A model generated the notes under the pieces. That model did not search any database. It was not told where the DNA came from and saw only the letters and a list, made by a program, of their open reading frames with translations. The position numbers and the translations under genes were made by a program. A stretch of DNA of 64,000 bases from IMG/VR virus record IMGVR_UViG_3300010373_000007, positions 4,792 to 68,791 of that record; one strand, given 5' to 3'. Source of the stretch: a virus. Shown here one piece after another: positions 26,649 through 62,555 of the stretch. Positions within the stretch are counted from its first letter, which is position 1; every line of letters begins with the position of its first letter.

Positions 26649-26658
26649 AGATTACGCC
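26649..26658 (-). promoter_or_regulatory. GGCGTAATCT box
   Basis: In the 23-nt gap after the terL stop, 14 nt before GTG 26637. Confidence 0.4.
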
Positions 26659-26660
26659 GC

Positions 26661-28055
26661 TCAGGCGACGTCGAAGATCGAGATCTCCGGCCCGTTGTTC
26701 CACAGGTGGGCCAGCGCGTCGACCTGATCCGAGAATGGGTCGTTGACGCCGGTCCAGGTCTCCAGCTCGTAGAGGAACGGCTCCAGCCAGGGGGGGTTGC
26801 CGAGCGGCACGAGCACGCGCCCCTGGTTCCAGGCGGCGGCGACGCCCTGCGCGCGCTGGAACTTGTCGCCCTTGGCGGGGCTGGCGACGATCCGGGCGTG
26901 GGGGTCGACCCGCCAGATGGTGTCCATGACCGCGCGCCCCGGGCCCGGCCCCTCCACCGCCGCCATCGCGCCGTCGTTGCGCTCCTGGAAGCCGCGGAGG
27001 TCGTCGCAGAACTGCGGGACGGTGACCTGCTCGTGGTAGACGTCCGTCAGGTAGAGGATCCGCTCGTCCTCGATGACGCCACGGAAGCGCCCCGAGACCG
27101 CGGCCGAGTAGCACGCCGTCTCCGAGTCGCTGGCCGCCGGGTCCGCGCCGATCCCAATCTGGCAGTCGTTGAAGTTGACCGTCTTGGGGTCGTAGTAGTG
27201 CGGCGCTCCGAACAACCGCGTCCCCTTAACGCGCGGCTCACCCTGGAAGAGGGCGGAGAAGTTGAACTCGCCGATCGTGCGCTGCTTCTTCTTGAGCCAC
27301 TCGGCGGGGTACATCTCCGGCCAGAGCGCGTTCCCATCCGCGTCGAGCGCGGGCAGGTTGATGAACTGCCAGCCCGAGATGTCCCCCTTCTTCTGCATCC
27401 GCTTCAGGCGCCCGATCGCGTCGTCGGGGTGCCAGCGGGTCTGGATCAGGAAGATCGGCGCGCCGCCCTCAAGGCGGGTCAGCGCGACGGCCTGGATGGC
27501 GTCGAACACCTTCTCCCGGTAGGCGCGGCTGTTGGCGTCCTCGGGCCCGGCGTAGGGGTCGTCGATCACCAGTGGGCCCTGGATGCGCTTGCCGGTCAGC
27601 GACTCCATGCCGCCGGCGACGAGGCCGCCGTTCTGGGTGGTGCGCCACTCCCGCTTGGCGTTCGACTCCTCCGATAGCTCGACGCCCGCCATCTCGGTCA
27701 GGATGCGGGTCTGGGCGCTCTTTCCGAGGGCCTGGTCGGCGTTGTAGCTGTTGTACGCGCACAGATCGCCGGGGAACTTCGAGAGCCACCAGGCGATGGC
27801 GTGCATGACGAGGTAGCTCTTGGCGTGCCCGGGGGGCATCGAGACCCCGACCATCACGTCGCGCTCGACCCGCGCGCGCTCGAAGGCGTTGATCAGCGGC
27901 CGGAGGTGGGGCGGCGGCGGCCGGTGCGGCGCCATCCGCGTCATGAACTCCGCCAGCCCCTCCCCGCCGGCGATCGCCTCCACGTCCCCCGAGAACGCAT
28001 CCCGCTCGTCCTCGGTCATCGCCTCCCAGACCTCTGGGGTCAGGCCATCGAGCAC
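26661..28055 (-). CDS. terL: Terminase large subunit
   Basis: 464 aa. Walker A-like MPPGHAKS, Walker B-like LVIDDPY, and a C-terminal nuclease-like region (IGADPA...DQVDAL). Confidence 0.9.
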   Translation of the reverse strand: MLDGLTPEVWEAMTEDERDAFSGDVEAIAGGEGLAEFMTRMAPHRPPPPHLRPLINAFERARVERDVMVGVSMPPGHAKSYLVMHAIAWWLSKFPGDLCAYNSYNADQALGKSAQTRILTEMAGVELSEESNAKREWRTTQNGGLVAGGMESLTGKRIQGPLVIDDPYAGPEDANSRAYREKVFDAIQAVALTRLEGGAPIFLIQTRWHPDDAIGRLKRMQKKGDISGWQFINLPALDADGNALWPEMYPAEWLKKKQRTIGEFNFSALFQGEPRVKGTRLFGAPHYYDPKTVNFNDCQIGIGADPAASDSETACYSAAVSGRFRGVIEDERILYLTDVYHEQVTVPQFCDDLRGFQERNDGAMAAVEGPGPGRAVMDTIWRVDPHARIVASPAKGDKFQRAQGVAAAWNQGRVLVPLGNPPWLEPFLYELETWTGVNDPFSDQVDALAHLWNNGPEISIFDVA

Positions 28056-28056
28056 G

Positions 28057-28629
28057 CTACTCCTCGTCGCTCGCTGCGGCCTCGGCGACCTGAGCCGCCA
28101 CTCGGGCGCGGGCGGCCTCCAGGAGCTGCGCGGCGCGCGCGCGGCGCTCCCCGGATGTCAGGACCACCGCAGTGGCCGTCGACTCGGTCTGGATGGGGCC
28201 GCCGCCCTCGCCGGCGATGTGCACGACCTTGGCGGCCTCCGTCCCCTCCAGGCGCGACAGGTGGCGCTCCAGCTTGTCCACCTCGCCGTAGAGGCCCTTG
28301 GACACCAGGACCGGCAGCCGCTTGTAGTGCCGCCGGATCGCCCGCTGGCGGGCCACGCGGCGCCCGGGTAGGGGGTCGTCCTTCCAGCGCTGGGTCACCC
28401 GAGCGACATAGTCGTCAACGGTTCGGTCGGGGAGCGGCTCGGCCTCGGCTTGGGCGTCGGCTCCGGCTCCCGGCGGCAACGCCGCGATGGCCAGGACCTT
28501 CCCGTACCGGGCCCGGGGGATGTTCAGCAGCATCGCGTCCTCCAGGGCGTCAACCAGCCGGAGGATCTGAGCCTGACTGCGGGGTGTGCCGTGGGGGACC
28601 TTGGCCGGCGCGACCTTACGCGACTTCAC
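28057..28629 (-). CDS. Terminase small subunit candidate
   Basis: 190 aa, basic N-terminus, immediately upstream of terL. Call is by position. Confidence 0.5.
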   Translation of the reverse strand: MKSRKVAPAKVPHGTPRSQAQILRLVDALEDAMLLNIPRARYGKVLAIAALPPGAGADAQAEAEPLPDRTVDDYVARVTQRWKDDPLPGRRVARQRAIRRHYKRLPVLVSKGLYGEVDKLERHLSRLEGTEAAKVVHIAGEGGGPIQTESTATAVVLTSGERRARAAQLLEAARARVAAQVAEAAASDEE

Positions 28630-28685
28630 GGCTCCAAGGGTAACGCGACGGTCGGGGGACCGTCAATGGATGGCCCGGGGCGCGG

Positions 28686-29087
28686 TCAGCGCCCGGCGTC
28701 CGGGAGCAAGTCCCAGTCGTCGATGCTCGGGACGTACGGGGCCGGGCGGGCGGCCTTGTGGATGGTGCAGGCGCAGCCCAGGCGGCAGCCGGCCTCCGAG
28801 TCGGGGCGGTGGTCGCGGGAGCAAGAGCCGACGCGGTCCCCCTTGGTCATAGCGGCCTTCGGCGGGGGAAGCGTGGCAACGATGCCGCGCCTCGCCTGTT
28901 CGGGCAGCGGGTCGCGGCGCCCGTCCATCCAGCAAGCCTCGCAGCATCCAGCTCCGCCGATGATCCTGCCGTTCTCGTCGCGGTTGAACAGCGCCCTGGA
29001 CGCCGCGGTCATGCAAACGATTCCGACGGCCAAGCGCTGGGTACAGCACCAGTGGATCGAGACCTTCTCCCATTGCTGCATGCCCAT
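28686..29087 (-). CDS. Cys-rich hypothetical protein
   Basis: 133 aa with at least 10 Cys (HWCC, GCCEAC, CRLGCAC). Start uncertain. Confidence 0.4.
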   Translation of the reverse strand: MGMQQWEKVSIHWCCTQRLAVGIVCMTAASRALFNRDENGRIIGGAGCCEACWMDGRRDPLPEQARRGIVATLPPPKAAMTKGDRVGSCSRDHRPDSEAGCRLGCACTIHKAARPAPYVPSIDDWDLLPDAGR

Positions 29088-29134
29088 GTGGATCCTCCTC
29101 GGGGGATACTACGCCGAGCTGGTGACGAGGGCGA

Positions 29135-29365
29135 TCAGGGCGCCGCCCAGTCGAAGTAATTGCAGCAGAACGCATCCGGGTTGGCGATGACCTGCCCGGT
29201 CTTGCCGTCGACGAAGCGATCGTCCCCAGCCTTCTTCCAGCGGTAGCTGGACCGGATGTAGTCGGGGTTCTGGCAGCGGTCGCCATTGGGGGCCGGAGCC
29301 TGGTACTCGCACTTGGAGCAGCAGGAGCCGAGGACGGGGACGCGGATGCCGATGGGGGAGGGCAT
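29135..29365 (-). CDS. Small Cys-rich protein
   Basis: 76 aa, SCCSKC...C...FCC. ATG preceded by GGTTAGAATCTCCCCC with no SD. Confidence 0.5.
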   Translation of the reverse strand: MPSPIGIRVPVLGSCCSKCEYQAPAPNGDRCQNPDYIRSSYRWKKAGDDRFVDGKTGQVIANPDAFCCNYFDWAAP

Positions 29366-29382
29366 GGGGGAGATTCTAACCT

Positions 29383-30879: not shown

Positions 30880-30880
30880 G

Positions 30881-31845: not shown

Positions 31846-31846
31846 C

Positions 31847-35149: not shown

Positions 35150-35159
35150 AGGTTACGCC
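35150..35159 (-). promoter_or_regulatory. GGCGTAACCT box
   Basis: Inside the 311-nt gap. A GTG follows after 9 nt, opening only a short ORF. The annotated start 35035 lies 118 nt downstream. Confidence 0.35.
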
Positions 35160-35346
35160 GGCGGCGCAGCGGAGCGAGGACAGGCGACCGCCCTAGATCC
35201 GGGTTCCACGCGGTCGCCCACAAGGTGGGGCAGGCGCGTCAGGTAGGCCGGCCAGTCACGGAGCCTGCACGCCTTCCCCGGAGCGGCACCACACTACTCG
35301 CACGGCTCATCATCCCGGCGCCGGCGGACGTTCACGACGTCCTTGT

Positions 35347-38604: not shown

Positions 38605-38948
38605 CAGTCCACCATCTCCTCGGGAATCTCGACCTCCTTGATGGTCCCCTCCATCGGGTCATTCTCCAGGCCAAGTTCGACGAGCCGCTGGGTTGCCTGA
38701 TGGGCGTGCTCGAAATCCTCGCGGAACGGGATGCCCTTCAGCTTCCCCTCGATCCGGTGGCGCTTGACCATCTTCGGCGGCGCAGGGACGAGAACCGTCA
38801 TTCCCCAATCGGTCTTGCGGGCGACGAGCCTGCCGCCCTTGCCGTCGGTGATGATGACGCCGGTTACGTTGCCATCCGTCTTCTCCAACTCGACGCTCAC
38901 CCCGGCGAGCGAGACGTCCGACAGGTTCTTCACGGTCTTCATGTTCAT
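38604..38948 (-). CDS. Hypothetical protein
   Basis: ATG 38948 preceded by GGAGGG. 114 aa. Confidence 0.55.
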   Translation of the reverse strand: MNMKTVKNLSDVSLAGVSVELEKTDGNVTGVIITDGKGGRLVARKTDWGMTVLVPAPPKMVKRHRIEGKLKGIPFREDFEHAHQATQRLVELGLENDPMEGTIKEVEIPEEMVD

Positions 38949-38971: not shown

Positions 38972-38981
38972 ACATTACGCC
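38972..38981 (-). promoter_or_regulatory. GGCGTAATGT box
   Basis: In the gap between 38989..39348 and the next gene, 26 nt before ATG 38948. Confidence 0.35.
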
Positions 38982-38988
38982 GCCCCGG

Positions 38989-39348
38989 TCACGGGACCTG
39001 CGGGTTCAGCCGGATCAGCAGCGAGCGGTCCGGCGGCCAGGTAATCCGCTCGCCCCCCGCCGGCTGCTGGATGAGGAAGTTCCCCTGGTAGTCGCCCGGT
39101 ACCTGGGGCGAGCCGAGGTCGGTCGCGCGCCAGAGGTACTGAGCCTTGGTCTGGGGTGTCGTCCCCGCCACCGACCCGACCAGGTCGACCGCCGCTACCG
39201 TCTCGTTCAGGGGCCCGACGTGGAGCGTGACGGTCGCCCCCGTGATGTCGATATAGGACCCGAAGGCATCGGTGACCGTGAAGGCCATGGGGACGTTGTC
39301 GTCGCCCACCCAGAACTCGAAGTCGGGGACGGGGTCGTTCTCGCTCAT
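38989..39348 (-). CDS. Hypothetical Ig-like/beta-sandwich protein
   Basis: 119 aa. ...DITGATVTLHVGP...YLWRATDLGSPQVPGDYQGNF... resembles phage Ig-like domains. Confidence 0.5.
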   Translation of the reverse strand: MSENDPVPDFEFWVGDDNVPMAFTVTDAFGSYIDITGATVTLHVGPLNETVAAVDLVGSVAGTTPQTKAQYLWRATDLGSPQVPGDYQGNFLIQQPAGGERITWPPDRSLLIRLNPQVP

Positions 39349-39381
39349 GGGGCGATGGTACCACCGCCTGGGTCAGCGGGC

Positions 39382-42056: not shown

Positions 42057-42100
42057 CGCCCCGGATGGTGCCGCGCGCGGGGGCGTGGGTCAAGCTCGGG

Positions 42101-43100: not shown

Positions 43101-43699
43101 CGCCAACCCCGGATCAGGATCCGCAGGGCCCGCAGGCGGTCGGCCTCATCCGCCAGCTTGGCAACCCGCCGCTCCGCCCCGCTGGACGTCTTGTCGGCCT
43201 GGAACTGCTTGCGCAGGGCCGTCTCCATCTCGCCGATGAGGCGGTCCAGGCCGTAGGTCTTGACCGCCTCCACGGGGCTGACGATGCGCTCGGTGGCCTT
43301 CCAGCGAGATACCTCGCCTGGGACGGTGGACCAGGGGCCGTCGTAGACCAGCTCGACGAGTTCCCCGTCCTGGCGCAGCATGAGCCGCGTCCCCGAGTAG
43401 CGGCCGCGGGACGATATCGGCCCGCGGACGGTCGGCGCTCCGGTGGTGGGCCCCGCGCCACCCAGGTAGAGCCCGCGCCAGGGGGCCGGCTCGACGATCG
43501 TCCCGGCGCTGGTGGTGACGGACGCCAGGCCGACCTGCGAGGCGAGCGCCCGCAGGGCCGGGCCGACCGCCTGGATGACCTCGTGGAGGATGGTGGCCCG
43601 CTCGGCGAGCGCGGCGGCGCCGGCGGCGTCCAGGGCGTCCAGGCTGCGGCCAACCTGCTCGGCGACGCTGCGGAGGTCGGTGATGGTCTCGGTGTCCAT
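43097..43699 (-). CDS. Hypothetical protein
   Basis: 200 aa. ATG preceded by AAGGAG. Confidence 0.6.
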   Translation of the reverse strand: MDTETITDLRSVAEQVGRSLDALDAAGAAALAERATILHEVIQAVGPALRALASQVGLASVTTSAGTIVEPAPWRGLYLGGAGPTTGAPTVRGPISSRGRYSGTRLMLRQDGELVELVYDGPWSTVPGEVSRWKATERIVSPVEAVKTYGLDRLIGEMETALRKQFQADKTSSGAERRVAKLADEADRLRALRILIRGWR

Positions 43700-43714: not shown

Positions 43715-43724
43715 AGGTTACGCC
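43715..43724 (-). promoter_or_regulatory. GGCGTAACCT box
   Basis: Its TAA is the stop of 43718..44533. 18 nt before ATG 43699, and an SD is present here. Confidence 0.35.
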
Positions 43725-44533
43725 CGCGCGACGGCGAGCAGGTTGTTCTCGGCTTCGGTGACGGCGGCCTCGGCGGCCTTGACGGCGGCCTCGGCGATTC
43801 GGACGGATTCGATCGCGGCCTTGTGCTCGCCGCGGGCCTGCTCTGCGGCGACCAGGGCGCGCGCGTAGGCGGCGCCGGCCTCCTCGGCGGGCGAGCGCGG
43901 GGCGGAGGCGGGAGCCTTGCCGCGGGGAGATCCATCCTTGAGGCCGCGCGGCTTGGGGTAGTCGCGCAGCGCCGGGATCAGCTCCAGGAGCTTGTCGTAG
44001 TTCGCCTGCATCGGGAGCATGAGCCCCATCTCCCAGCCGCTGATCGTTGAGCCGTGGACGCCGCCCAGGGCGCCCAGCTCGCGCTGTCCGATCTTCTCGA
44101 CCTCCTCGCGTAGGTATCGGAGCGCGTCCCGGAAGTTCCGGATGTTGGGGCGCGAGGGCGGGATGACGACGAGGGAGCCGGCATCGATCACGGCGGCGGG
44201 CGCGGGCGGCGTGGCGACGGCGGGCGCGGGCGGCGTGGCGGCTGGCTCGGGGTCGCGGGATCTCTCCGGGAGGAGGTGCTGGAACGTCGTCAGGACCCGC
44301 ATCCCCTTGAGCGTGTAGATCCCCTTGAGCTGGTAGCTGCTCGGGAACCCGAGGCCTGCCTCCCACTTGTCGACCTCTCCGGCGCCGGTGCTCGCGTGGC
44401 CCGCGATCTCTCGGAGTGTGAACCCGGCTCGCTCTCGGCACTGACGGAGGGCCTGGCCCCAGGTTGTGATCTTGGCGGGGCCTGACGGGATGAGTCTGGG
44501 CGCGTTGAATGGCTGCTTGGCGTGTGCGTTCAT
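43718..44533 (-). CDS. Tandem-HTH (two XRE-like domains) regulator with coiled-coil tail
   Basis: ATG 44533 preceded by CAGGAGAAC; a GTG at 44560 (GTGA overlap) is the alternative. TWGQALRQCRERAGFTLREIA...KWEAG and NFRDALRYLREEVEKIGQRELG...GWEMG. A 24-nt tandem duplication encodes ATPPAPAV/ATPPAPAA. Confidence 0.65.
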   Translation of the reverse strand: MNAHAKQPFNAPRLIPSGPAKITTWGQALRQCRERAGFTLREIAGHASTGAGEVDKWEAGLGFPSSYQLKGIYTLKGMRVLTTFQHLLPERSRDPEPAATPPAPAVATPPAPAAVIDAGSLVVIPPSRPNIRNFRDALRYLREEVEKIGQRELGALGGVHGSTISGWEMGLMLPMQANYDKLLELIPALRDYPKPRGLKDGSPRGKAPASAPRSPAEEAGAAYARALVAAEQARGEHKAAIESVRIAEAAVKAAEAAVTEAENNLLAVARA

Positions 44534-44556
44534 CGGGCGTTCTCCTGGTTGGTGGT

Positions 44557-44817
44557 TCACGGTCGGGATCCTTCTCGGATCGCGATCTCATTGGCCGCCT
44601 TGGCGATCACCTCCATCCACTTGCGGCCGTGCCCCGTGAGCCGGTGCCCGAGGCGGTGGTGGCGGAGCATCTCGGGGACCTTGGAGGTGACGATGATCCG
44701 CTCGGCGAGGGTTCCGTAGTCGTCTCCCATCTGGAAGTCCCCCCGCTCTGCGCGGCGGGTGTCTCCCCACTTGGCCCCGCAGGAGCAGGTAGCTACGGCG
44801 TTCTGGCGTGTTGGCAT
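44557..44817 (-). CDS. Hypothetical protein
   Basis: 86 aa. Confidence 0.45.
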   Translation of the reverse strand: MPTRQNAVATCSCGAKWGDTRRAERGDFQMGDDYGTLAERIIVTSKVPEMLRHHRLGHRLTGHGRKWMEVIAKAANEIAIREGSRP

Positions 44818-48181: not shown

Positions 48182-48922
48182 TCACTTGACGACCTCGAAC
48201 GAGAGCGCCCAGACCATCGGGTTGTCCCGGAACGACTGCTCCCCGTTGAGGACCTTCCAGAGCGCGAAGAAGGCGCCGCGCGCGGTCGGCTCGGCAACGC
48301 CATCGCGGTCGCTCCGCCAGCCATCGTCGCCCGGGATCATCCCCTCGGCGCGCGCGTCCTCCTCGCTGATCTCGGTGAGGCGCTGGGCGCGGACCTCGGT
48401 GATCTTGAGCGTCAGGCGCGACGCCCAGCGCGGAAGGAAGATGCCGGGGCGCCACTTTCGATCGGCCGCCTTCTGGTCGATGGCGAAGTTGCTCGGCTCG
48501 CTCAACGTCGACCAGGTATCGCTCAGCCGGCCCGCCCACTCGGATGGGATCGTCTCACACAGCCGTCGCGAATCATCGGCTCGGTACCGAATGAACGGAT
48601 AACCGTCCTCGGTCCAATCGGCGTACTGCCAGGCTTCGCGGACCCAAAGGTGGTCGCCGATACGAATCCTCGACCAAGCCACTAGTCCGCGCGGCCACGG
48701 CATGATCCGCGTTCCCTTCCAGGCCCACCCGATCTGCTTCTCGTCCCCTGCTTCTTCCGGTAACAATCCAGCGCCAGCGCACGCCTTGAGCGTATCGAAC
48801 GCAGTCTGGTCCATGATCGACTGCTCGGGCTGGGGATTCAGCAGCCGCCGCGTCTGGGTCTTTCGGCCCGTGAGGATGGCTCGGATCATTGGAGGCGAAA
48901 ACAGGATCGGCCGCTCGGTCAT
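48182..48922 (-). CDS. ASCH-like (PUA-fold) phage protein
   Basis: ATG 48922 in an ATGA overlap, 246 aa. MTERPILFSPPMIRAILTGRKTQTRR is the typical N-terminus of this prophage family. Confidence 0.6.
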   Translation of the reverse strand: MTERPILFSPPMIRAILTGRKTQTRRLLNPQPEQSIMDQTAFDTLKACAGAGLLPEEAGDEKQIGWAWKGTRIMPWPRGLVAWSRIRIGDHLWVREAWQYADWTEDGYPFIRYRADDSRRLCETIPSEWAGRLSDTWSTLSEPSNFAIDQKAADRKWRPGIFLPRWASRLTLKITEVRAQRLTEISEEDARAEGMIPGDDGWRSDRDGVAEPTARGAFFALWKVLNGEQSFRDNPMVWALSFEVVK

Positions 48923-49797
48923 CGTGGGAATTCCCTGATGCGGATGTCCTCCGGCCACTCGGCCATGTCGCCGCCGTGATTTGGATCCTTCTCCAGCCGG
49001 AGGCGGTTCAAGCCCTCGGCGTGCCTCGCGTTGACCCCGAGTTGCTTCCAGAACGGGTGCACGCCGTCCCGGCGCATCGCGCGCGTCAAGGCGCGGCCCC
49101 AGTCCAGAACGAACGGGCGCGCGCCCGCCCCGCTCTCACCGCCGATGATTCCCCAGTGGATATCGCGGAGATCGACCGACTCATGGATCGGTCCGATCAG
49201 CGGCTCGAACGACGCGAACCGAACAATCGCCGGGATCTGCCGCAGGATCGGGATCCGAGATGTCGCTGCCTCGTCTTCGACCGTCGTCCCGATCCAGACG
49301 TTCGGCCACGGGTCGCAGCCGCGCCCACCATCCGCGATGTCGCAGAAGTCCTCGCCGCAGCAAACCCCGTCGCGCATCGACGCCTTGCAGGTGACGTTCC
49401 CGCATCCTTCGGGCGTCCACGGGAGCATCCGCGCGACGTTCTCCGGCCGCTTGGTGAGCAGCATCCAGTCGAGGTTCGGCGTCGCCAGGATGAGGCGCCA
49501 GAGGCGCTCGCGCTCGACCAGGAGGTCGACGCGGTCCTCGAACACGTCCGCCATCGACGCGCAGAACACACGCTGGCGTCGACCCTCGCCGCCGGCCTTG
49601 GCGTTCCACTTGAGCGGCTCCCGCCAGTGGTTCTCGCCGAAGAACCGGCGCGGCGCGCGCGGCCCCCAGTCGGCGCGCCCTAGGCGCTTGTCGAACGCCT
49701 CCGCGTAGCAGTGTTCGCAGCCCTTCGACACGCGCTGGCAGCCCCACCACGGGTTGAACGTCGAATCGGCCCAAGCGATCTTGGTCTCGGCTCCCAT
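48919..49797 (-). CDS. Phage Gp37/Gp68 family protein (DUF5131)
   Basis: KIAWADSTFNPWWGCQRVSKGCEHCYAE is the family signature. An extra Cys-rich insert follows (CGNVTC...CCGEDFC). Confidence 0.8.
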   Translation of the reverse strand: MGAETKIAWADSTFNPWWGCQRVSKGCEHCYAEAFDKRLGRADWGPRAPRRFFGENHWREPLKWNAKAGGEGRRQRVFCASMADVFEDRVDLLVERERLWRLILATPNLDWMLLTKRPENVARMLPWTPEGCGNVTCKASMRDGVCCGEDFCDIADGGRGCDPWPNVWIGTTVEDEAATSRIPILRQIPAIVRFASFEPLIGPIHESVDLRDIHWGIIGGESGAGARPFVLDWGRALTRAMRRDGVHPFWKQLGVNARHAEGLNRLRLEKDPNHGGDMAEWPEDIRIREFPR

Positions 49798-49803: not shown

Positions 49804-49813
49804 AGATTACGCC
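49804..49813 (-). promoter_or_regulatory. GGCGTAATCT box
   Basis: GGCGTAATCTCCCGGG-ATG(49797). No SD. Confidence 0.45.
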
Positions 49814-49826
49814 GGGCCGGCGACGG

Positions 49827-51781: not shown

Positions 51782-52174
51782 TCAAGCGTCGGTCTCGGGC
51801 CGGTCCTCGACGTCGGCCTGGTAGTCCTTCTTCTCCAGGGTCCGCTCGCCAAGTTTCTCGTCCGTCTCGGCGTCGTGGATCGCCGCGATGCCGTGTCCGA
51901 AGTCCTTCAATTCGTAAACCTGGCACTCCTGCTCGGTCGTCCCCTCGCGAATGTCCTGCTTCAACTTCCGCTTGTCAGCGCGCAGGGCGGTAATCTTCTC
52001 CTTGGCGGGCTTGAGCGTCTCGGTCAGGGCGTCGATCTGAAGCTCCGCCTCGGCGAGGCGCATCTTCCGCGCCGCGGTCTCGTCGGCGTCGATCGGGACG
52101 CGAACAAGCTTCGGGAAAATTCCGGTGCGGACGACTTCACTGGACTTCGCAGTCTCTGGCATGCTTGCCTCCAT
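51782..52174 (-). CDS. Hypothetical coiled-coil protein
   Basis: 130 aa. Start follows a GGCGTAATCT box by 9 nt. Confidence 0.55.
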   Translation of the reverse strand: MEASMPETAKSSEVVRTGIFPKLVRVPIDADETAARKMRLAEAELQIDALTETLKPAKEKITALRADKRKLKQDIREGTTEQECQVYELKDFGHGIAAIHDAETDEKLGERTLEKKDYQADVEDRPETDA

Positions 52175-52180
52175 CGGCAG

Positions 52181-52190
52181 AGATTACGCC
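52181..52190 (-). promoter_or_regulatory. GGCGTAATCT box
   Basis: TAG-GGCGTAATCTCTGCCG-ATG(52174). No SD. Confidence 0.45.
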
Positions 52191-52472
52191 CTATCCGGCA
52201 CGGAGGGCGGCGTCCCGCACCCGGCGGATGATGGGGAGGCGTTCCTTGAACGACAGGCCGGCGCGCACCAGCTCCCGCTCCAGGGCGGCGCAGACGCGCT
52301 CGACCCCTTCGCCGTAGCCGGATTCGCGACCCGCCATGTGGTCCAGAGAGCGGTGCGGAGTCGTCTCGGCGAGCGGTTCCGGGCGAGCATCGATGACGGT
52401 CGGCATCCGCTGGAACCACTCGGGCACCGGATTGTCGTCATCGTCTCCCTGGTCCACGCCGAGACGATACAT
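52191..52472 (-). CDS. Hypothetical protein
   Basis: 93 aa. Confidence 0.5.
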   Translation of the reverse strand: MYRLGVDQGDDDDNPVPEWFQRMPTVIDARPEPLAETTPHRSLDHMAGRESGYGEGVERVCAALERELVRAGLSFKERLPIIRRVRDAALRAG

Positions 52473-53954: not shown

Positions 53955-55709
53955 CTAGCTCATCTCCGCCTGGCCCGCGCCGCTCTGGTCCGCCCAGAAT
54001 GGGGTCTGGGTCCCGTCGAGAAGCTTGAACACCTTCCCCTCCTTGCCGGCGTCTACGATCCTACCGAGCGTGTAGTCCGAGTCGTAGCAGTTCTTTCGCA
54101 CGTCGAACTTCGTGAGCGCGACGAAGCGCGTGACGCTCATGTCGGTTCGGTTCTTGGCGGCCGCCATGTAGGTCCCCCACTTGAAGCTGTCTGGGCTGGA
54201 GACACCGAACGCGGGCGCTATCACAACCGCCTTCGTCGCCACGTTCCCGATGTCCTTCGCGCCCGAGAAGTCCTCCAGGTTCGGGATGATCGACTCCTTT
54301 GCGCGGTCGCTCTTTCGGAGGTGCGCCACCACGATCACGGGGACGCGCGCGCCGAGCGCGCAGGCGGCGAGCTTCTTCGCGAGCTTGCTCGCCGCTCGGA
54401 TCTCGTTGTCGCGCTCGTCCTCGCCCCCGACGTAGTGGAAGTGGTCGAGCACCACTAGGTCGGCCTCGTCCTGGATCGCCTCGAACTGCACCTGGAAGTC
54501 GTTCGAGGTGAACGAATCCTCCCGGTAGAACGTGCGGAGGTTCTCCAGCGCGGTCTCCATCTCCTGGTCGGCCTCGTCCTCGAACTGCCCCAGCACGCCG
54601 TCGAGGTCACCGCTCACCCAGTCCTGATATCGGATCGGCTTCGTCCCGATGCGCCGGTAGTACATGTTCGCGATCGCCTGGTACTTCATGCGGCGCTCGA
54701 TCTCGCGGTCCTCCGCCTCCAGCGCGAAGTAGAAAACCCGCTTGCCGCGCCGGCAGTTCGCCATCGACGTAATCGCCGCGAGTTGCGTCTTCCCCGTCCC
54801 CGACTTGGCCCCGTAGAGCACCACGTCTGTGCGGGTGATGCCGCCCAGGGCCTGGTCGAGGAACGGGACCCCGAACGTCATCCGATCCTTGCCCGCCGCT
54901 AGGCGCGCGGCGCGCTCGCCAGAGAGGCGCGATGTCGCCGGCTTGAACGTCTGCGGGATCTTCCCCGGCGCCGCCGCCACCAGCCGCTCAAGCTCGACGC
55001 GCGTCCCGCCCTTCGCGATCCAGTCGGAGACGTCCCCCTTCGCCGGCAGGCCCGGCAGTTCCACGACCTTCACCCAGGCGGCGATCCCGCCGAGCGCCTT
55101 CGCGACGATCGCGGCGTGGGCGGCGCCCGGTTGGTCGTTGTCCGGGAGGATCGCAACACCGCGCCCGCGCAGCGCCGCCGAGTAGTCGTCCCGCCACTTC
55201 CCCGCGCCTCCGACGTTCGTGGTCGCCAGGAGCCCGAGCCGCTCTAGGTTGTCGGCGTCCTTCTCGCCCTCGACGACGAACGCGATCCGGTCCTTCGGCG
55301 CCTTCGAGATCTCGGGGAGGTGGTACAGGACGCGGCGCGCGCCGTCCATGGTCCACTTCCAGCCGCCCCGCCCGTCCGGCTGCCGCTGCCGGAAGGTCTT
55401 CGGGACCATCCTCACGACCTCGTAGAGCAGCGCCCCCTTCTCGTCCTGGTAGGCGTAGCGCGCCGCCACGTCGTTCCCAGCCGAGTCGCGATCGGGGAAT
55501 AGGTCCGACATCGCCATCTCAAGGTCCTCGACGATGCTCTCCGTCTCGCATCCGGCATGGCAGTTCAGGAGCACCCGGCCGTCGTCCCCCTCCTTCACGC
55601 TCAGGCTCGCCTGGCGGTCGTCGTGGCTCGGGCACTTCGCCATCCAGGCCCGGGGCCCGACGCCCTTGACCCCTTCGAGGCGCGACACGAACTGGTCGGC
55701 TGGTTTCAT
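53955..55709 (-). CDS. Bifunctional primase-helicase (zinc finger + TOPRIM + DnaB/RecA-type NTPase)
   Basis: 584 aa. CPSHDD...CHAGC, TOPRIM VVEGEKDADNL...DNDQPG, Walker A GAKSGTGKT and Walker B LVVLDH. Confidence 0.9.
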   Translation of the reverse strand: MKPADQFVSRLEGVKGVGPRAWMAKCPSHDDRQASLSVKEGDDGRVLLNCHAGCETESIVEDLEMAMSDLFPDRDSAGNDVAARYAYQDEKGALLYEVVRMVPKTFRQRQPDGRGGWKWTMDGARRVLYHLPEISKAPKDRIAFVVEGEKDADNLERLGLLATTNVGGAGKWRDDYSAALRGRGVAILPDNDQPGAAHAAIVAKALGGIAAWVKVVELPGLPAKGDVSDWIAKGGTRVELERLVAAAPGKIPQTFKPATSRLSGERAARLAAGKDRMTFGVPFLDQALGGITRTDVVLYGAKSGTGKTQLAAITSMANCRRGKRVFYFALEAEDREIERRMKYQAIANMYYRRIGTKPIRYQDWVSGDLDGVLGQFEDEADQEMETALENLRTFYREDSFTSNDFQVQFEAIQDEADLVVLDHFHYVGGEDERDNEIRAASKLAKKLAACALGARVPVIVVAHLRKSDRAKESIIPNLEDFSGAKDIGNVATKAVVIAPAFGVSSPDSFKWGTYMAAAKNRTDMSVTRFVALTKFDVRKNCYDSDYTLGRIVDAGKEGKVFKLLDGTQTPFWADQSGAGQAEMS

Positions 55710-56440
55710 TTCCCACCCAAGTTACGCCCGAATAATCGCCGCTCGGCCTCTTCGAGGTCGCCGCCGGGCGCCGGCGCCGCGTGAACGCGCGCCTCGTTCG
55801 GGTCCTGGAGGTACCTCCCATCGCTGAGCCATGTGCGGACGTGCGGGTAGTGGAACCAATCGGCTTTCCACTCGGCCGACGCCTCCCAAAGCTTCCACGC
55901 GGCACCGAACCTGGGGCGGCCAGCCTTCTCCCAGAACGTGCACGCCTTGTCCTTCGACCCCGTCCTGGCGGTCTGGCTCCACTCGGCCTCGAACTCCGCG
56001 GGGTAGCTCGTTCGGGGGAGCGTCGGCGCGCGCCTAGATCTCTTCGTTGTAGGGATCTGGATCTCTCTCTGATCCGGTCGGATCAAGACCAGATCGAGTA
56101 CCCCGGATAGACCCCCCCCCAAAGCCCCCCCCCTTCCGGGGGAGGGCGCTATAGGTAGCGGGCTCCCGCGGGCCTGCCCGATACCTGTAGCGGGCGACCG
56201 AACCATCAGCCCGGCATTAGTAGCGGGCGGAATGACTTCACCCGCTATAGGTAGCGGGCTAGCGTTCTTTGGAATGGGGTCGCCCTTGCGCCAGATCGAC
56301 CCCGCGCGGACCGCCTGGTCGCTGGTCCAGCGGCTCTCGCACGCCTCGCAGACGTGGCGCCGCACGGGGGCCTTTCCAGGGACCGTTCGGATGGTCCCAG
56401 TGCGGTCGCTCCCGCAGACCGGGCAGGTCATTTGGTCCAT
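55706..56440 (-). CDS. Zinc-ribbon replication-initiator-like protein
   Basis: ATG 56440, 244 aa. CPVCGS...CEAC. C-terminal FEAEW...FWEKAG...AWKLW...YPHVRTWLSDGRYLQD resembles a common phage replication-module domain. Iterons lie inside the gene. Confidence 0.55.
   Translation of the reverse strand: MDQMTCPVCGSDRTGTIRTVPGKAPVRRHVCEACESRWTSDQAVRAGSIWRKGDPIPKNASPLPIAGEVIPPATNAGLMVRSPATGIGQARGSPLPIAPSPGRGGALGGGLSGVLDLVLIRPDQREIQIPTTKRSRRAPTLPRTSYPAEFEAEWSQTARTGSKDKACTFWEKAGRPRFGAAWKLWEASAEWKADWFHYPHVRTWLSDGRYLQDPNEARVHAAPAPGGDLEEAERRLFGRNLGGK
55719..55728 (-). promoter_or_regulatory. GGCGTAACTT box
   Basis: 12 nt before primase-helicase ATG 55709. Lies inside the 3' end of the initiator-like gene. 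Confidence 0.3.
56037..56095. repeat. Cluster of six GATC sites
   Basis: GATC at 56037, 56054, 56060, 56071, 56081 and 56092, all within 59 nt. Confidence 0.7.
56112..56133. repeat. Two C9 (coding-strand G9) homopolymer tracts 4 nt apart
   Basis: C9 at 56112-56120 and at 56125-56133. They encode GRGGALGGGL. Confidence 0.8.
56147..56260. repeat. Four in-phase iterons (core GTAGCGGGC)
   Basis: Cores at 56155, 56187, 56220 and 56251, spaced 32, 33 and 31 nt. The outer two share an 18-mer, CGCTATAGGTAGCGGGCT. Confidence 0.75.
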
Positions 56441-57007: not shown

Positions 57008-57025
57008 CTCAGCCTCCGAACGCGA

Positions 57026-57113
57026 GAAAGCCGCTCTGCGGACCCCGCCCCGTCCGATTCACGATCGCTTGCTGAGGGCGACGGGATAGGACGAGGACCG
57101 CAGAACGGCTTTC
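57026..57113. repeat. 19-nt inverted repeat with 50-nt spacer
   Basis: GAAAGCCGCTCTGCGGACC (57026-57044) pairs with GGACCGCAGAACGGCTTTC (57095-57113); 17 of 19 positions are complementary. Confidence 0.65.
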
Positions 57114-57152
57114 AGGCGTGATCATGAGTTGTCGGCACCCTCAGCGTCAAGG

Positions 57153-57162
57153 ACGTTACGCC
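57153..57162 (-). promoter_or_regulatory. GGCGTAACGT box
   Basis: In the 178-nt gap. Sits 30 nt from the next box, in direct orientation. Confidence 0.35.
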
Positions 57163-57182
57163 GGACGAGCCACGAGGTCTAG

Positions 57183-57192
57183 GACTTACGCC
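57183..57192 (-). promoter_or_regulatory. GGCGTAAGTC box
   Basis: Its TAA is the stop of 57186..57389. Confidence 0.35.
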
Positions 57193-57389
57193 CGACCGCC
57201 CCCGCTGGCGCCCTTGGCGGCCTCCAGGAGGCAGCTCCGGCAGATGGCGAATCGGTGGAGGATCACGCAGTTGGACGGCTGCTCCACGAGGAGCTTCGCC
57301 GCCACGCGGACCCGGTAGGTGTTGCAGACGTCGCAGCTCTGCCCCTCCCGCTTGCTGTGGCGGCGGGAGAGGAGCAGCAGGCGCGCCAT
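57186..57389 (-). CDS. Small zinc-ribbon protein
   Basis: ATG 57389 in a TGATG overlap, 67 aa. CDVC...CRSC. Confidence 0.5.
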   Translation of the reverse strand: MARLLLLSRRHSKREGQSCDVCNTYRVRVAAKLLVEQPSNCVILHRFAICRSCLLEAAKGASGGGRA

Positions 57390-59475: not shown

Positions 59476-59705
59476 CGCGGGCCTCCCTTCGCGCGCGCGG
59501 CGTGCCTCTCCTGGACCTCATCCCAGGCCGCCGCCGCCTCGGCCAGGAACCCCCCGCGGGTCATCTTCTTCGACTCGCAACCCGTGGCCGCCTGCCAGAG
59601 ATAGGCGCGGACTACGTTCATCACCTTGAATTCGAGGGCGGCGAAGTCATGGTTCAACTCCATCAGCATGATGAACGCCGCGATCGTTTCCTTGCTCGCC
59701 GTCAT
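59472..59705 (-). CDS. Hypothetical small protein
   Basis: 77 aa. Confidence 0.45.
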   Translation of the reverse strand: MTASKETIAAFIMLMELNHDFAALEFKVMNVVRAYLWQAATGCESKKMTRGGFLAEAAAAWDEVQERHAARAKGGPR

Positions 59706-59989
59706 GGCCGGTACCCCAGAGGGCGGCCCGTCCGCTTCCGGCGGGACTGCTTGGCGGCGAGCCTCACGCTCTCCCGAAGGAACCAGCGGTTGGCCGCCTC
59801 CCGGCGGGTGAGCGGCGTCCTGGCGACGTCCACCCCGGGCGGGATGGGGAGCTGGCCCTTCCGCGCCCAGAGGTAGAGCGTCACCACGGCGATCTTGTGC
59901 TTGGCGGCGAGTGCCTGGGCGGTCGCGTAGCCCTGGATCGCCATGTCTCGGATCAGCGCGCGCGGGGGCGCGCCTCCACGTGTGTTCAT
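59702..59989 (-). CDS. Small HTH DNA-binding protein
   Basis: 95 aa. ...GYATAQALAAKHKIAVVTLYLWARKG.... Basic tail. Start follows a GGCGTAATCT box by 9 nt. Confidence 0.55.
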   Translation of the reverse strand: MNTRGGAPPRALIRDMAIQGYATAQALAAKHKIAVVTLYLWARKGQLPIPPGVDVARTPLTRREAANRWFLRESVRLAAKQSRRKRTGRPLGYRP

Positions 59990-59995
59990 TCAGGG

Positions 59996-60005
59996 AGATT
60001 ACGCC
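59996..60005 (-). promoter_or_regulatory. GGCGTAATCT box
   Basis: Its TAA is the stop of the sigma-like gene. GGCGTAATCTCCCTGA-ATG(59989). No SD. Confidence 0.45.
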
Positions 60006-60703
60006 GCCAACTCGGCGAGCTTGCGCCGTGCTCGGACCGCCCCGCGATCGGCCCGCACGCGCTGCCCGAGACGGTGCAGGGCCGCGGAGAGCCCGACCGA
60101 GCTGTTGCCGGTGATCCAGGCCGCGTCGGAGATCGGCGTCTCGCTGTCCCGCGACAGGGCGACCTCCAGGCCGCGCCGCTGGCGTTCCGGAAGGGCGCAG
60201 AGGTGCGAACGGACGAGCCGCCCGACCTCAGCGCGCGCCGCCCGCGCGTCCGCCGCCGCGCGCCGCGCCGTCGGATCGTCCCCGCCCGAGATGTCGATCG
60301 GATCTGAACGCGGGTCGACGTTGGCGTTGTCGCGGGCCGCCGACTTGCCACCCTTCAAGGCGACATGGCCGCAACCGATCAGGGGCATGTATCCGACCGG
60401 CGCCTCCCGCGCGAAGCGGTCGTAGACACTGGCCGCGCACGCCGCGCGCCTCCCCTGGTAGATCACCTTCAGGCGGGCCGCCTTGAAGTGGTAGACGCGG
60501 TTCCCGGCGCAGAGCGGGACGCCCCGCAGGACGACCCCCTCCCAGACGGCGAGCGCCGCCCACTGGAAGGCGTCCTCCTCGTCCCCGTGCAGCTCGCCGC
60601 GCGCGCGCATCGTCGCGAGCACCATCCGCACGAACTCCTCAAGCTCCCGCGACTCTGGGGGCTTGACCGCCCCGGCGCGCGCCCTGACAATCGACTTCGA
60701 CAC
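59999..60703 (-). CDS. Sigma-70-family (ECF-like) factor candidate
   Basis: 234 aa. DEEDAFQWAALAVWEG is region-2-like. LPERQRRGLEVAL...ISDAAWITGNSSVGLSAALHRLGQRVR is region-4 HTH-like. Confidence 0.55.
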   Translation of the reverse strand: MSKSIVRARAGAVKPPESRELEEFVRMVLATMRARGELHGDEEDAFQWAALAVWEGVVLRGVPLCAGNRVYHFKAARLKVIYQGRRAACAASVYDRFAREAPVGYMPLIGCGHVALKGGKSAARDNANVDPRSDPIDISGGDDPTARRAAADARAARAEVGRLVRSHLCALPERQRRGLEVALSRDSETPISDAAWITGNSSVGLSAALHRLGQRVRADRGAVRARRKLAELAA

Positions 60704-60792
60704 TGGATCCCTCCTGGCTGGGTGGGTTCTGGTTCGTTGGTTGGGGCGGCGGCGCCGGGTTCCCCCTGATTTCCCGGCGCCGCCACCTCGTT

Positions 60793-61272: not shown

Positions 61273-61336
61273 GGCATCCCTCCTGATTTTTGGCTGGGCG
61301 GAGCCAACCGGCGCCGCATGAGGGACACCCTAACCC

Positions 61337-61372
61337 ATAATATCGCCCGATGGGAAACTATTTTATCGGGCG
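61337..61372 (-). promoter_or_regulatory. AT-rich -10-like island (GCGATATTATGGG on gene strand) adjoining an 8-bp hairpin
   Basis: TATTAT at 61337-61342. Arms 61344-61351 and 61365-61372 (CGCCCGAT/ATCGGGCG) with a 13-nt AT-rich loop. About 65 nt upstream of ATG 61272. Confidence 0.4.
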
Positions 61373-61605
61373 TTCGGAACCGTCGTGGTTCCGTGGGGAT
61401 GCGGCGAGCAATCTGGGCACCGGCAGGAGCATGGTTCGGCGCGGACGGCTTCGATCGCGGCGGCGATGACCGCCACCGGATCGTGCACGCTTGGCCCGAA
61501 TGCGTTCACCATCCCCTTGCCCATCTCCGCTGAGCGCTCCGCCGCGCGCTGGGCGTCCCGCCAAGCGTCCTCGGCGATCGACCGGGCTGGGCGGCGGATC
61601 GGCAT
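61363..61605 (-). CDS. Hypothetical small protein
   Basis: Internal ATG 61605 in a TGATG overlap, 80 aa. Contains CSCRCPDC. Confidence 0.4.
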   Translation of the reverse strand: MPIRRPARSIAEDAWRDAQRAAERSAEMGKGMVNAFGPSVHDPVAVIAAAIEAVRAEPCSCRCPDCSPHPHGTTTVPNAR

Positions 61606-61817
61606 CAGGACCCGCTGTACGGCCCGGGAACGCGCTTCGCCTGGCGCCCGCGGCGGACGGGGAACTGGAACGTCCCGGCGCACTCAGGGCGGCGCCACTG
61701 GCCATCAACCCGGCGGCTACGCGGCGCGCGCGGGTCGGCGTGGACGGTGAGGCGGAGCGCGGGGCCCATGCGGCGGAGGGAGATCTCGCGCCGGCAGACG
61801 CGGCAACGGCCCATCAC
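61605..61817 (-). CDS. Hypothetical small basic protein
   Basis: 70 aa, CRVC...C. Coupled to the rusA stop. Confidence 0.4.
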   Translation of the reverse strand: MMGRCRVCRREISLRRMGPALRLTVHADPRAPRSRRVDGQWRRPECAGTFQFPVRRGRQAKRVPGPYSGS

Positions 61818-62284
61818 TCGACGAGCCCCGGAAGGACCGGACCGGACTCGGTGGCCGGCGGCGGCTTGTAATCGACCGGCTCAACGGTGATGGTCGCCCC
61901 TTCGTCGCCGGGATCGGCGTAGGTCTTCGTGACGATCTTCTCGCAGATCCGCGAGTCGTCGTCGTAGATGGTGCCGATCATCGAATCGAGCGTGGCGCGC
62001 GTGAGCTTGTCGATATCGGGCTTCACGATCGGGTAGGGCGTCCGGCGCCCGGTGGCGTTGAGCCCGTTCTTCCCCCAGTGCCCGGACGGCCGCGCGAGCC
62101 GGAACCCCAGGATCACGCGGAGCGCGGTCTCAACATAGACCGGCCCTTCTGCCTCCGGTGCGAACAGGTTGCGGGCGTTGCTCGCCTCCGCGCGGACCGC
62201 GGCGTCCCAGGTCCGCAGCTTGGCGCGGGCCGTGTCCGATCCAGAAGCACCGAGGACCGCGTGCGGATTCGGTCCCCGGGTCAT
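61814..62284 (-). CDS. rusA: RusA-family Holliday junction resolvase
   Basis: 156 aa. ...VKPDIDKLTRATLDSMIGTIYDDDSRI... is the RusA catalytic motif. Confidence 0.8.
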   Translation of the reverse strand: MTRGPNPHAVLGASGSDTARAKLRTWDAAVRAEASNARNLFAPEAEGPVYVETALRVILGFRLARPSGHWGKNGLNATGRRTPYPIVKPDIDKLTRATLDSMIGTIYDDDSRICEKIVTKTYADPGDEGATITVEPVDYKPPPATESGPVLPGLVE

Positions 62285-62337
62285 GAAGGCGCGCGCGGAT
62301 CCCTTCGGCGCCGGCGACCCCAGGACGTCGAACCGGA

Positions 62338-62538
62338 TCAGTTTGGCCTCCGGAACTGCCGGTCGTAGTCCTCGTCGAAGTCCGATACCGGCGCGCCCTG
62401 GCCGAGCATTTTCCCGGCGCAGTACATCCCCCGGCAGACCCCGCGGAAGAACCCCGCGCGCCGCCCGGTGACGAACCCGACCAGGGTCGCAAGTCCGATC
62501 GAAAACACCTCGATGGCGAGGAGGGCCAGGATCCGCAT
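62338..62538 (-). CDS. Small membrane protein
   Basis: ATG 62538, 66 aa. MRILALLAIEVFSIGLATLVGFV. Start follows a GGCGTAACAT box by 10 nt, no SD. Confidence 0.5.
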   Translation of the reverse strand: MRILALLAIEVFSIGLATLVGFVTGRRAGFFRGVCRGMYCAGKMLGQGAPVSDFDEDYDRQFRRPN

Positions 62539-62545
62539 GGGGGAG

Positions 62546-62555
62546 ATGTTACGCC
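62546..62555 (-). promoter_or_regulatory. GGCGTAACAT box
   Basis: GGCGTAACATCTCCCCC-ATG(62538). Confidence 0.4.

Follow-up and report, generated by a model that had tools for sequence, protein, structure and literature searches.

What function is served by a short word that recurs, almost always in one orientation, in and beside the few gaps of a tightly packed phage genome? We addressed this question for the word GGCGTAA in a window of 64,000 bases (IMG/VR record IMGVR_UViG_3300010373_000007, positions 4,792 to 68,791) that belongs to a metagenomic phage assembly (ENA ERZ27256675, k141_5289262), circular and 68,668 bp long, of which Logan SRR6185512 holds an identical 37-kb piece. The phage sequence has a GC content of ~69%, and nearly all of its genes are carried by the minus strand, hereafter called the gene strand. 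Along the direction of transcription, small early genes and RusA are followed by the gene for a 234-aa protein, then by genes for a 5'-3' exonuclease, a primase-helicase, a DUF5131 protein, methylases, a GH25 lysin and a protein with two helix-turn-helix (HTH) domains, and finally by terminase (26661-28055), portal, capsid and tail genes, the last of which wrap round to the start. We consider it likely that the phage has a promoter class of its own built around this word, with the 234-aa product, a sigma-like protein, as the best candidate for its reader.

An exact count places GGCGTAA at eleven positions on the gene strand (26652, 35153, 38975, 43718, 49807, 52184, 55722, 57156, 57186, 59999 and 62549), each of them already listed in a preliminary description of this DNA. 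That description held that every copy is oriented with the genes, which is true of these eleven; a twelfth copy is found on the plus strand at 4010, where it precedes an open reading frame (ORF) on that opposite strand. On both strands together, 3.05 +/- 1.84 copies are expected, and 12 copies were reached in 0 of 100 shuffles. Under Markov backgrounds of order 1 to 3, only 0.8-1.7 gene-strand copies are expected compared to the 11 observed (P = 1e-6 to 1e-9). Seven gene-strand copies are fully non-coding and the remaining four reside in the last 23 nt of a coding sequence. Because just ~13.6% of all positions are non-coding or fall within such a terminal 23 nt, the placement of 11 of 11 copies there has a P value of ~3e-10.

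The copies are also unevenly distributed. From 26.6 kb to where the tail genes end, a virion operon of ~30 kb, the gene strand has none, and the 4.7 kb of the circular assembly outside the window contains no additional gene-strand copy. The virion module had been described as free of the motif altogether, which proved incorrect: copies of the extended motif defined below are present at 3026 and 4010 on the opposite strand, each before an opposite-strand ORF.

The recurring word is only part of a larger element. The core had been recognized from the outset as GGCGTAAYCT, but a second conserved box, the dinucleotide CG located 10 nt upstream, had been missed, and the full motif is therefore bipartite (CG-N10-GGCGTAAYNT). 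Ten of the 11 gene-strand copies match GGCGTAAYNT exactly, and variants with one mismatch are scarce. Counted from the first G, the CG box in the window has C at -12 in 10 of 11 copies and G at -11 in all 11; when sites from related phages are pooled with those of the window, these bases are kept at 22 (C) and 21 (G) of 24 sites. A T is found three bases past TAA in ten of the 11 copies, and also at 3026, 4010 and at a further site at 29106, which makes TAAYNT a TANNNT hexamer. The positions that define a -10 element are kept at all or nearly all sites, with A at hexamer position 2 in 24 of the 24 pooled sites, drawn from five phages, and T at position 6 in 21.

Other hallmarks of familiar promoters are missing from these sites, which we term class II sites, our name for promoter sites of the GGCG type. 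A TTGAC-like -35 consensus is absent, and only the CG located 14 nt before the hexamer is conserved; the exception is the site at 57156, where TAGACC is present at N17. Class II sites also lack a TG extension. The AAC that is typical of -35 elements for extracytoplasmic function (ECF) sigma factors is likewise absent; CGT(A) is present, with the upstream CG 12 nt from CGT, and thus the sites do not classify as ECF promoters. A simple promoter and terminator scan returned the same counts as for shuffled sequences and located no terminators upstream of motif sites, and an Rfam search yielded no family. An RNA hairpin formed by pairing of CGYC with GGCG was rejected, as the minimum-free-energy folds of the 11 sites share no common structure. 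Two other words drew our attention during this analysis. The 7-mer AGCGGAT is over-represented (18 copies versus 3.7 expected), and this is a codon effect within genes (xAG-CGG-ATx), whereas CTAG, which is found beside three motif sites, was judged to be uninformative.

Related phages have the motif as well. Through homologues of two proteins, the primase-helicase and the 234-aa protein, we reached the related contigs L120/L001, L121, L204, L207, L209 and L210 (L001 is the same phage as L120, and its 8 kb ends before the motif sites), which carry the same or a nearly identical motif, either GGCGTAA or CGCGTAA, in most cases predominantly on the gene strand. Copies of GGCGTAA on the gene strand and the other strand, respectively, number six and one in L204, four and one in L207, two and two in L209, and three and none in L120. 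The shorter word GCGTAA is found six times on the gene strand of L121 (three of these being CGCGTAATATC) and twice on the other, and five times on the gene strand of L210 (three being CGCGTAACNT) and never on the other. Among the 210 loci that we fetched, gene-strand enrichment is confined to contigs with a homologue of the 234-aa protein, and the ~200 others exhibit none. No motif was found in the available 6 kb of the IMG/VR relative L002, whose primase is ~68% identical, or in the 21.7 kb of L122, which is 58% identical and carries an integrase. A weight matrix built exclusively from the relatives' sites, and hence independent of those in the window, nevertheless ranks the window's sites at the top.

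At orthologous promoters, the footprint of the motif is kept while the flanking sequences diverge. The gene for a small hydrophobic protein is preceded by the motif and then by 9 or 10 nt and ATG in the window, in L204 (7875) and in L207 (3904), and by the near-identical CGCGTAACATCACCCCCATG in L210 (6795). Before the gene that follows the sigma-like gene, GGCGTAATCTCCC is invariant in the window, L204 and L207. These three phages likewise share TCCTAGACCT-N14/15-GGCGTAA at the promoter of a structured leader and a 56-aa gene. The more distant relatives L120, L002 and L121 carry canonical hexamers in the exact columns occupied by the TAACGT of the motif, with the TA columns invariant, and the orthologous promoter of L120 reads TTGACT-N18-TACCGT.

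The strongest computational evidence for promoter function comes from genes that stand alone on the opposite strand. The relatives-trained weight matrix also picks two plus-strand sites in the window, each located 6 nt before an ATG. One is a variant site at 3014..3035 (+), in which the CG box and GGCGTAGTAT are followed by 6 nt and the ATG at 3042 of a 167-aa gene within the tail module (3042..3545, +), which is the only opposite-strand gene called and which has a predicted leaderless start. The other is a full motif at 3998..4019 (+), in which the CG box and GGCGTAAGGT are followed by 6 nt and the ATG at 4026 of an uncalled 101-aa ORF (4026..4331, +) with a lipoprotein-like signal peptide (MWKKLLIGCGVIFGMMGC). 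The orthologue of the opposite-strand gene in L209 has the motif upstream in that gene's own orientation, and so do the opposite-strand genes located at the equivalent tail-side position in L207 and L121; in these three relatives, the motif is followed by a leader of 17-20 nt with a Shine-Dalgarno sequence. A gene that is alone on its strand needs its own promoter, and the motif is the only conserved element upstream of this isolated gene in the window, L209, L207 and L121, which argues that the motif functions as that promoter.

The position of the hexamer relative to start codons points in the same direction. A start codon lies exactly 6-7 nt past the hexamer at six of the 14 window sites (62549, 59999, 52184, 49807, 3026 and 4010), and this spacing recurs at eight sites in relatives (L204 7875 and 12086; L207 3904 and 7044; L120 13532; L121 2953; L210 6795 and 8762), where the independent gene calls of the collection picked the very same codon. 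About half of the sites are instead 17-140 nt from the next start, and the genes concerned have their own Shine-Dalgarno sequence, such that the distance between motif and start ranges overall from 9 nt to more than 100 nt.

Four starts had originally been noted as lacking a Shine-Dalgarno sequence, and three of these are well supported as predicted leaderless starts. The start of the DUF5131 gene (48919..49797, -) agrees both with a Pfam alignment that begins at residue 4 and with the collection's gene call, and those of a 95-aa gene (59702..59989, -) and the small hydrophobic protein gene (62338..62538, -) are supported by orthologues in L204 and L207. For the 95-aa gene, the start at 59944 chosen by a gene caller was rejected in favor of 59989, because the arrangement GGCGTAATCTCCC-N3/4-ATG, followed by the conserved peptide MN(T/S)RGGAP, is kept in the window, L204 and L207. 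The fourth start, at 52174, is considered with the objections below. It had also been suggested that the TAA of four copies doubles as the stop codon of the upstream gene, and that TGA is the usual stop. The latter is correct, with TGA used by 60, TAG by 24 and TAA by four of 88 genes, but the TAA serves as a stop in only three copies (43718, 57186 and 59999), which account for three of the four TAA stops.

The same geometry is exhibited by a second sequence class elsewhere in the genome. Canonical promoters of the form TTGACS-N17/18-TACCMT-N6-7-start precede portal, small-terminase-like, lysin and tail genes on the minus strand. Examples are TTGACG-N18-TACCCT-N7-GTG before 28629 (28636-28680), TTGTGC-N17-TACCAT-N7-ATG before the portal gene (25962-26000; start at 25955), GTGACA-N17-TACCAT-N7-ATG before the large tail gene (2986-3021; start at 2985) and TTGACC-N17-CACCAT-N8 before the lysin gene, along with a host-type hexamer, TAGAAT-N7-ATG, before 29365. 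The stretches assigned to this class (TTGACS or GTGACA, N17/18, TACCMT or CACCAT, N6-8, start) also include 42057-42100, 14164-14209 and 39349-39381, and L210 has TGTAGCAT-N6-GTG instead. TANNNT hexamers number 75 on the gene strand in total. The genome thus carries two classes of promoter-like sequence that share one geometry, a host type with a -35 element and the GGCG class without one, and the presence of canonical promoters in leaderless positions before several genes suggests that leaderless starts are general in this phage. The original proposal of a TANNNT -10 element with leaderless geometry is favored by every computational test applied to it and supported by base conservation, by start spacing and by alignment with the -10 elements of L120, L002 and L121. 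The presence of the motif before orthologous starts in relatives and before the opposite-strand gene, together with this alignment, supports the interpretation that the motif is a promoter that often yields leaderless transcripts.

Which protein might recognize such promoters? The gene at 59999..60703 (-), which had been singled out earlier for a reporter test, encodes the 234-aa protein, and by eye its product exhibits patterns like those of sigma regions 2 and 4. It belongs to a family of 24 cluster representatives of ~210-220 aa. Searches of Pfam and of PDB sequences with the single protein or with an eight-sequence profile found nothing. A profile of the family, when compared to PDB, matches B. 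subtilis SigA collinearly from sigma2 to sigma4 (E = 1.2e-3), and also matches RpoS, the sigma4 domain of RpoD, and SigB. Family members match the sigma70-ECF model TIGR02937 (5e-5) and RpoS (3.9e-4), and give marginal matches to Sigma70_r2/r4 (0.04). An AlphaFold2 model of the 234-aa protein consists of two helical domains with a disordered linker between them, with a predicted local distance difference test score of 66.8. Foldseek searches with this model return sigma factors almost exclusively as top matches in PDB (weak E values of 0.07-1.5), and phage sigma factors as top matches in BFVD (E = 0.016, with Foldseek probabilities of 0.96-0.99); the weakness of these scores is attributable to the mobility of the domains. 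From these profile and fold searches and the model, we conclude that the protein is a very divergent member of the sigma-70 family, ECF-like in its arrangement of sigma2, linker and sigma4, and the best candidate for reading the motif. When metagenome contigs from IMG/VR and JGI were scanned, no member of the family turned up, and tblastn of the protein against isolated phages gave no match.

Three observations tie this protein to the motif. First, the two co-occur. Second, the G that occupies position 0 of the motif in the window, L204, L207, L209 and L120 is replaced by C in L121 and L210, and this switch follows the sigma clade, the sigma-like proteins of the latter two phages having only 30-35% identity with that of the window. 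Third, the sigma-like gene itself has no motif upstream, and sits instead behind a conserved hairpin and a distinct, conserved AT-rich region.

A number of facts nevertheless weigh against the assignment. The window protein alone has no Pfam match up to E = 10 and no NCBIfam match up to E = 1, every single score for sigma homology is weak (E = 0.016-1.5 with Foldseek), and an hhalign comparison of the family with E. coli RpoE was not significant. Phylogeny confounds the co-occurrence of the motif and the sigma-like protein, since the contigs in which they are found together are simply those of the closest relatives. Several class II sites also come before the sigma gene in the order of transcription (62549; L204 7875; L207 3904; L210 6795 and 8762), which fits auto-amplification and fits recognition by a host sigma equally well. 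Furthermore, the CG box is ~5 bp nearer to the hexamer than is a normal -35 element, and this proximity, together with the lack of an ECF-type AAC, makes the use of a sigma4 domain hard to place.

Some individual sites raise objections of their own. The copy at 57186 (57183..57204, -; GGCGTAAGTC), the upstream member of a tandem pair whose TAA is the stop of a 67-aa gene, is weak, with a matrix score of 10.9 and no T at hexamer position 6, and it is not present in L204 or L207. The copy at 55722 (55719..55728, -; GGCGTAACTT), which falls within the 3' end of the initiator-like gene and precedes the ATG at 55709 by 9 nt, lacks a CG box, encodes F-G-R-N as part of the gene, and has no counterpart at this place in L207, even though the primases are 90% identical; it is probably non-functional or the one copy that chance would yield. 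At 43718 (43715..43736, -; GGCGTAACCT), where the double-HTH gene ends in the TAA of the motif, the predicted transcript start falls inside the AAGGAG Shine-Dalgarno sequence of the downstream gene (ATG at 43699). Finally, the 130-aa gene (51782..52174, -) may have a leaderless start at 52174 or a start led by a Shine-Dalgarno sequence at 52162, and the case is ambiguous because the second ATG is preceded by GGAGG.

The most serious alternative is that the sites are promoters read by the host primary sigma holoenzyme alone, with GGCG as a host-specific extension of the -10 element, and that the phage sigma-like protein serves other promoters or another function. TAAYNT is a legitimate -10 for a primary sigma, host-type leaderless promoters are freely used in this genome, class II sites lie ahead of the sigma gene in every relative, and the site at 57156 has the conserved, -35-like TAGACC at N17. 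What speaks against a host reader is the character of the motif itself. Its GGCG never varies and there are hardly any variants with one mismatch, unlike in host -10 regions, and the genome's own host-type hexamers vary (TACCAT, TACCCT, TAGAAT and CACCAT). Moreover, class II sites have neither the TG extension nor the TTGAC -35 element, and position 0 changes from G to C between phage clades. We therefore regard recognition by the host sigma alone as unlikely, and infer that the candidate phage sigma is the more probable reader.

A second alternative, that the sites are oriented, stoperator-like binding sites at which a phage DNA-binding protein blocks or modulates transcription, is in our view very improbable. 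Stoperators of the L5 type are asymmetric, reside in short intergenic gaps, are oriented with transcription, and sometimes overlap stop codons (PMC9283540). Those of Cluster A mycobacteriophages are 13-mers that are distributed genome-wide and bound by the immunity repressor of a temperate phage (PMC9283540). The motif resembles these elements in being an asymmetric, many-copy word that lies in short intergenic gaps along the direction of transcription and that at times overlaps stop codons; it is also bipartite, and a candidate binder is available in the 280-aa protein with two HTH domains (43718-44560). However, no integrase or recognizable immunity repressor was found in the window, where ~70 proteins were scanned for such families. 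Whereas stoperators are found genome-wide (PMC9283540), the motif is missing from the gene strand of the ~30-kb virion operon and of the outer 4.7 kb. A roadblock also assigns no part to the fixed spacing of 6-7 nt to start codons or to the alignment with canonical -10 elements, and it leaves the isolated opposite-strand gene, which needs a promoter, with the motif as its only conserved upstream element. The least probable alternative, that the motif acts in RNA as a signal for translation initiation or re-initiation in place of a Shine-Dalgarno sequence, or as an RNA-processing site, draws on the motif's position 9-10 nt from AUG codons without Shine-Dalgarno sequences and on the use of UAA as a stop codon in three copies, and is not supported, in that there is no conserved structure or Rfam match, that about half of the sites are far (17-140 nt) from starts whose genes have their own Shine-Dalgarno sequence, that most sites have a UAA that is not in frame or not used, and that the bases are conserved in the manner of a -10 hexamer, which aligns with DNA-level promoters of relatives.

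The promoter reading can be stated as a mechanism. GGCGTAAYNT, with CG 10 nt upstream, would form the core of a lineage-specific promoter class in which TAAYNT serves as the -10 hexamer and GGCG acts as a lineage-specific extension that replaces the canonical -35 element. Transcription would start 6-7 nt past the hexamer, and at about half of the sites this predicted position coincides with the first base (A or G) of the start codon, such that a leaderless mRNA would be produced, while the remaining sites would give rise to short leaders that carry a Shine-Dalgarno sequence. The most likely reader would be the host core RNA polymerase together with the sigma-70-family protein encoded at 59999-60703, itself presumably made from the separate and conserved AT-rich early promoter region. 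The resulting cascade would proceed from an early host-type promoter to the phage sigma and then to class II promoters, which would drive non-structural genes and the two opposite-strand genes of the tail module.

Phage sigma factors that define their own promoter classes include T4 gp55, which acts at late promoters, SPO1 gp28/gp34 and phiEco32 gp36; gp55, gp28 and gp34 are named in PMC9429907. As in those systems, a divergent phage sigma gene is accompanied here by a short, invariant promoter word repeated in part of the genome, and as in T4, whose word is TATAAATA, the -10 region dominates. Unlike in those systems, the motif is GC-rich before the hexamer, has a CG box at about -28/-27, and is associated with many predicted leaderless transcripts, and our case is built from sequence and comparative evidence. 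The 234-aa family also differs from these sigma factors in having no match among isolated phages and no Pfam hit, and from gp55 in that it retains a sigma4-like domain. Promoters for ECF (group 4) sigma factors carry AAC at -35 and CGT at -10, the latter being CGTA for B. subtilis sigma-W (PMC5758882). The two-domain sigma2/sigma4 architecture and the CGTA within the motif recall this group, but AAC is absent, the CG is 10 nt before GGCGTAA (12 before CGT) rather than ~16, and conservation reaches the T five bases after CGTA, in the TANNNT style of groups 1-3.

Two further comparisons concern start codons. Maps of transcription start sites in Mycobacterium and Streptomyces reveal that promoters of leaderless mRNAs in Actinobacteria and other bacteria place TANNNT 6-7 nt before the start codon. 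The geometry of our sites is identical, as is that of this genome's canonical -35/-10 promoters, although the motif has an invariant GGCG extension and no -35 element. The start-associated sequences of Cluster K mycobacteriophages contain a Shine-Dalgarno sequence and are located at a fixed short distance from each associated start. The motif is similarly a conserved word a few bases ahead of many start codons, but it has no Shine-Dalgarno sequence and its distance from the start varies from 9 to more than 100 nt.

The remaining sites, all on the minus strand, differ in their surroundings. At 62546..62567, the CG box and GGCGTAACAT are followed by 7 nt and the ATG at 62538; at 59996..60017, the CG box and GGCGTAATCT, whose TAA is the stop of the sigma-like gene, are followed by 6 nt and the ATG at 59989. 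GGCGTAATCT recurs with the same 6-nt spacing at 52181..52202, which has the top matrix score (23.2) and leads to the ATG at 52174, and at 49804..49825, which leads to the ATG at 49797 of the DUF5131 gene. It is found once more at 26649..26670, directly past the terminase stop, where an overlapping TAGGGT hexamer is located 6 nt ahead of the GTG at 26637. The site at 38972..38993 (GGCGTAATGT) precedes a gene whose ATG at 38948 has a GGAGGG Shine-Dalgarno sequence, and that at 35150..35171 (GGCGTAACCT) is located within a 344-nt gap and overlaps a second TANNNT hexamer, TAGGAT. A variant site with a CG box at 29106..29127 (GGCGTAGTAT) is followed by a gene whose start at 29087 is led by a Shine-Dalgarno sequence. 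Lastly, the site at 57153..57174 (GGCGTAACGT) has the conserved TCCTAGACCT box at the -35 position (TAGACC-N17-TAACGT) and stands upstream of the structured leader and the 56-aa gene.

This leader of ~140 nt between promoter and gene (57008-57150 (-) in the window, 5560-5714 in L120, 2215-2380 in L002 and 9035-9147 in L121) forms a long, imperfect, terminator-like hairpin that ends in GGGG..CTTTC. It is present in at least four related phages, has no Rfam match, and could be an attenuator or a small RNA. Another structure, a GC-only hairpin of 12-14 bp at 60748-60784 (-) (GGCGGCGCCGGG...CCCGGCGCCGCC), is located between a 159-aa gene and the sigma-like gene. It is also found directly upstream of the sigma-like genes of L204, L207, L209 and L210, where the structure is kept while the sequence differs. 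No U-tract follows the hairpin, which may control sigma expression as a terminator, as an attenuator or through RNA stability. Farther upstream, 61290-61370 (-) is the most AT-rich stretch of the region, with two direct repeats (CGATAAAAT/CGATATTAT), a TANNNT hexamer and then TCCCTC. This stretch, located ahead of the 159-aa gene that is itself followed by the sigma-like gene, is kept in L204 (~9140-9190), L207 (~5150-5215) and L209 (~8985-9030), and its hexamers read TAGGGT, TAAGGT, TATCGT or TATGGT. It is probably an early promoter or operator region, and with CGATAAAAT present twice ahead of a TANNNT hexamer, it looks like an early host-type promoter.

Several neighboring features also deserve mention. 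The gap of 541 nt left by the gene caller after RusA (61363-61817, -) has room for two plausible small ORFs, the first of which is Cys-rich, begins with an ATG at 61814 that overlaps the RusA stop (GTGATG) and is listed as 61605-61817, while the second ends at a TAA at 61362-61364. The ORF at 4026-4331 is antisense to tail genes, fills a 219-nt gap that separates two genes of the tail module, and overlaps the annotated start of a 220-aa gene; its product may be a moron, for example an exclusion protein. The double-HTH protein, with HTH_31 at residues 35-74 and HTH_3 at residues 159-194, is the sole obvious classical transcription regulator in the window, and the stop codon of its gene (-) is the TAA of a motif copy. 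In L204, a DDE_3 transposase cassette resides on the opposite strand (10718-12014) between the sigma-like gene and the motif-preceded gene downstream. The primase-helicases of L207 (11501-13258) and the window (53955-55709) are 90% identical and the sigma-like proteins just 54%, which indicates strong mosaicism within the lineage.

Clues to the host are mixed. Relatives of the primase domain are found in metagenome-assembled genomes from many phyla, including Planctomycetota, Acidobacteriota and Actinomycetes; the capsid and portal proteins are ~33% identical to proteins of Rhizobium and Vibrio phages; and the terminase and primase are actinophage-like. No tRNAs were found in the phage sequence, and these likenesses and the tRNA scan do not establish a host phylum. 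A megablast search with 12 kb against isolated phages gave no match, and the phage has no close relative among them.

No new principle is involved here, since leaderless promoters and phage sigma cascades have been described before. Some features are unusual, namely the GGCG extension, the position of the CG box at about -28/-27, the lack of a -35 element and a sigma family that escapes detection by domain libraries. We tentatively raise the further possibility that the 234-aa protein is the founding member of a clade of phage sigma-70-family factors that has gone unannotated, with ~24 cluster representatives that all derive from uncultivated phages. The promoter of this clade would consist of a 10-bp extended -10 element (GGCGTAAYNT) and CG at about -28/-27 with no canonical -35 element, and would yield leaderless mRNAs for much of the non-structural program and for antisense-oriented genes in the tail operon, making it an orthogonal sigma/promoter pair with non-standard use of sigma4. 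Several gene models improve on those of automatic callers, with starts at 59989 rather than 59944 and at 62538 rather than 62574, along with the uncalled lipoprotein-like ORF at 4026-4331. Compact sigma/promoter pairs are useful as orthogonal expression parts, and the unusual position of the CG box would inform views of the promoter contacts made by minimal sigma factors. If confirmed, these findings would provide an uncultivated phage lineage with a regulon of ~13 promoters, predicted start sites and a candidate sigma factor, and would add a sigma-family clade that present domain libraries miss.

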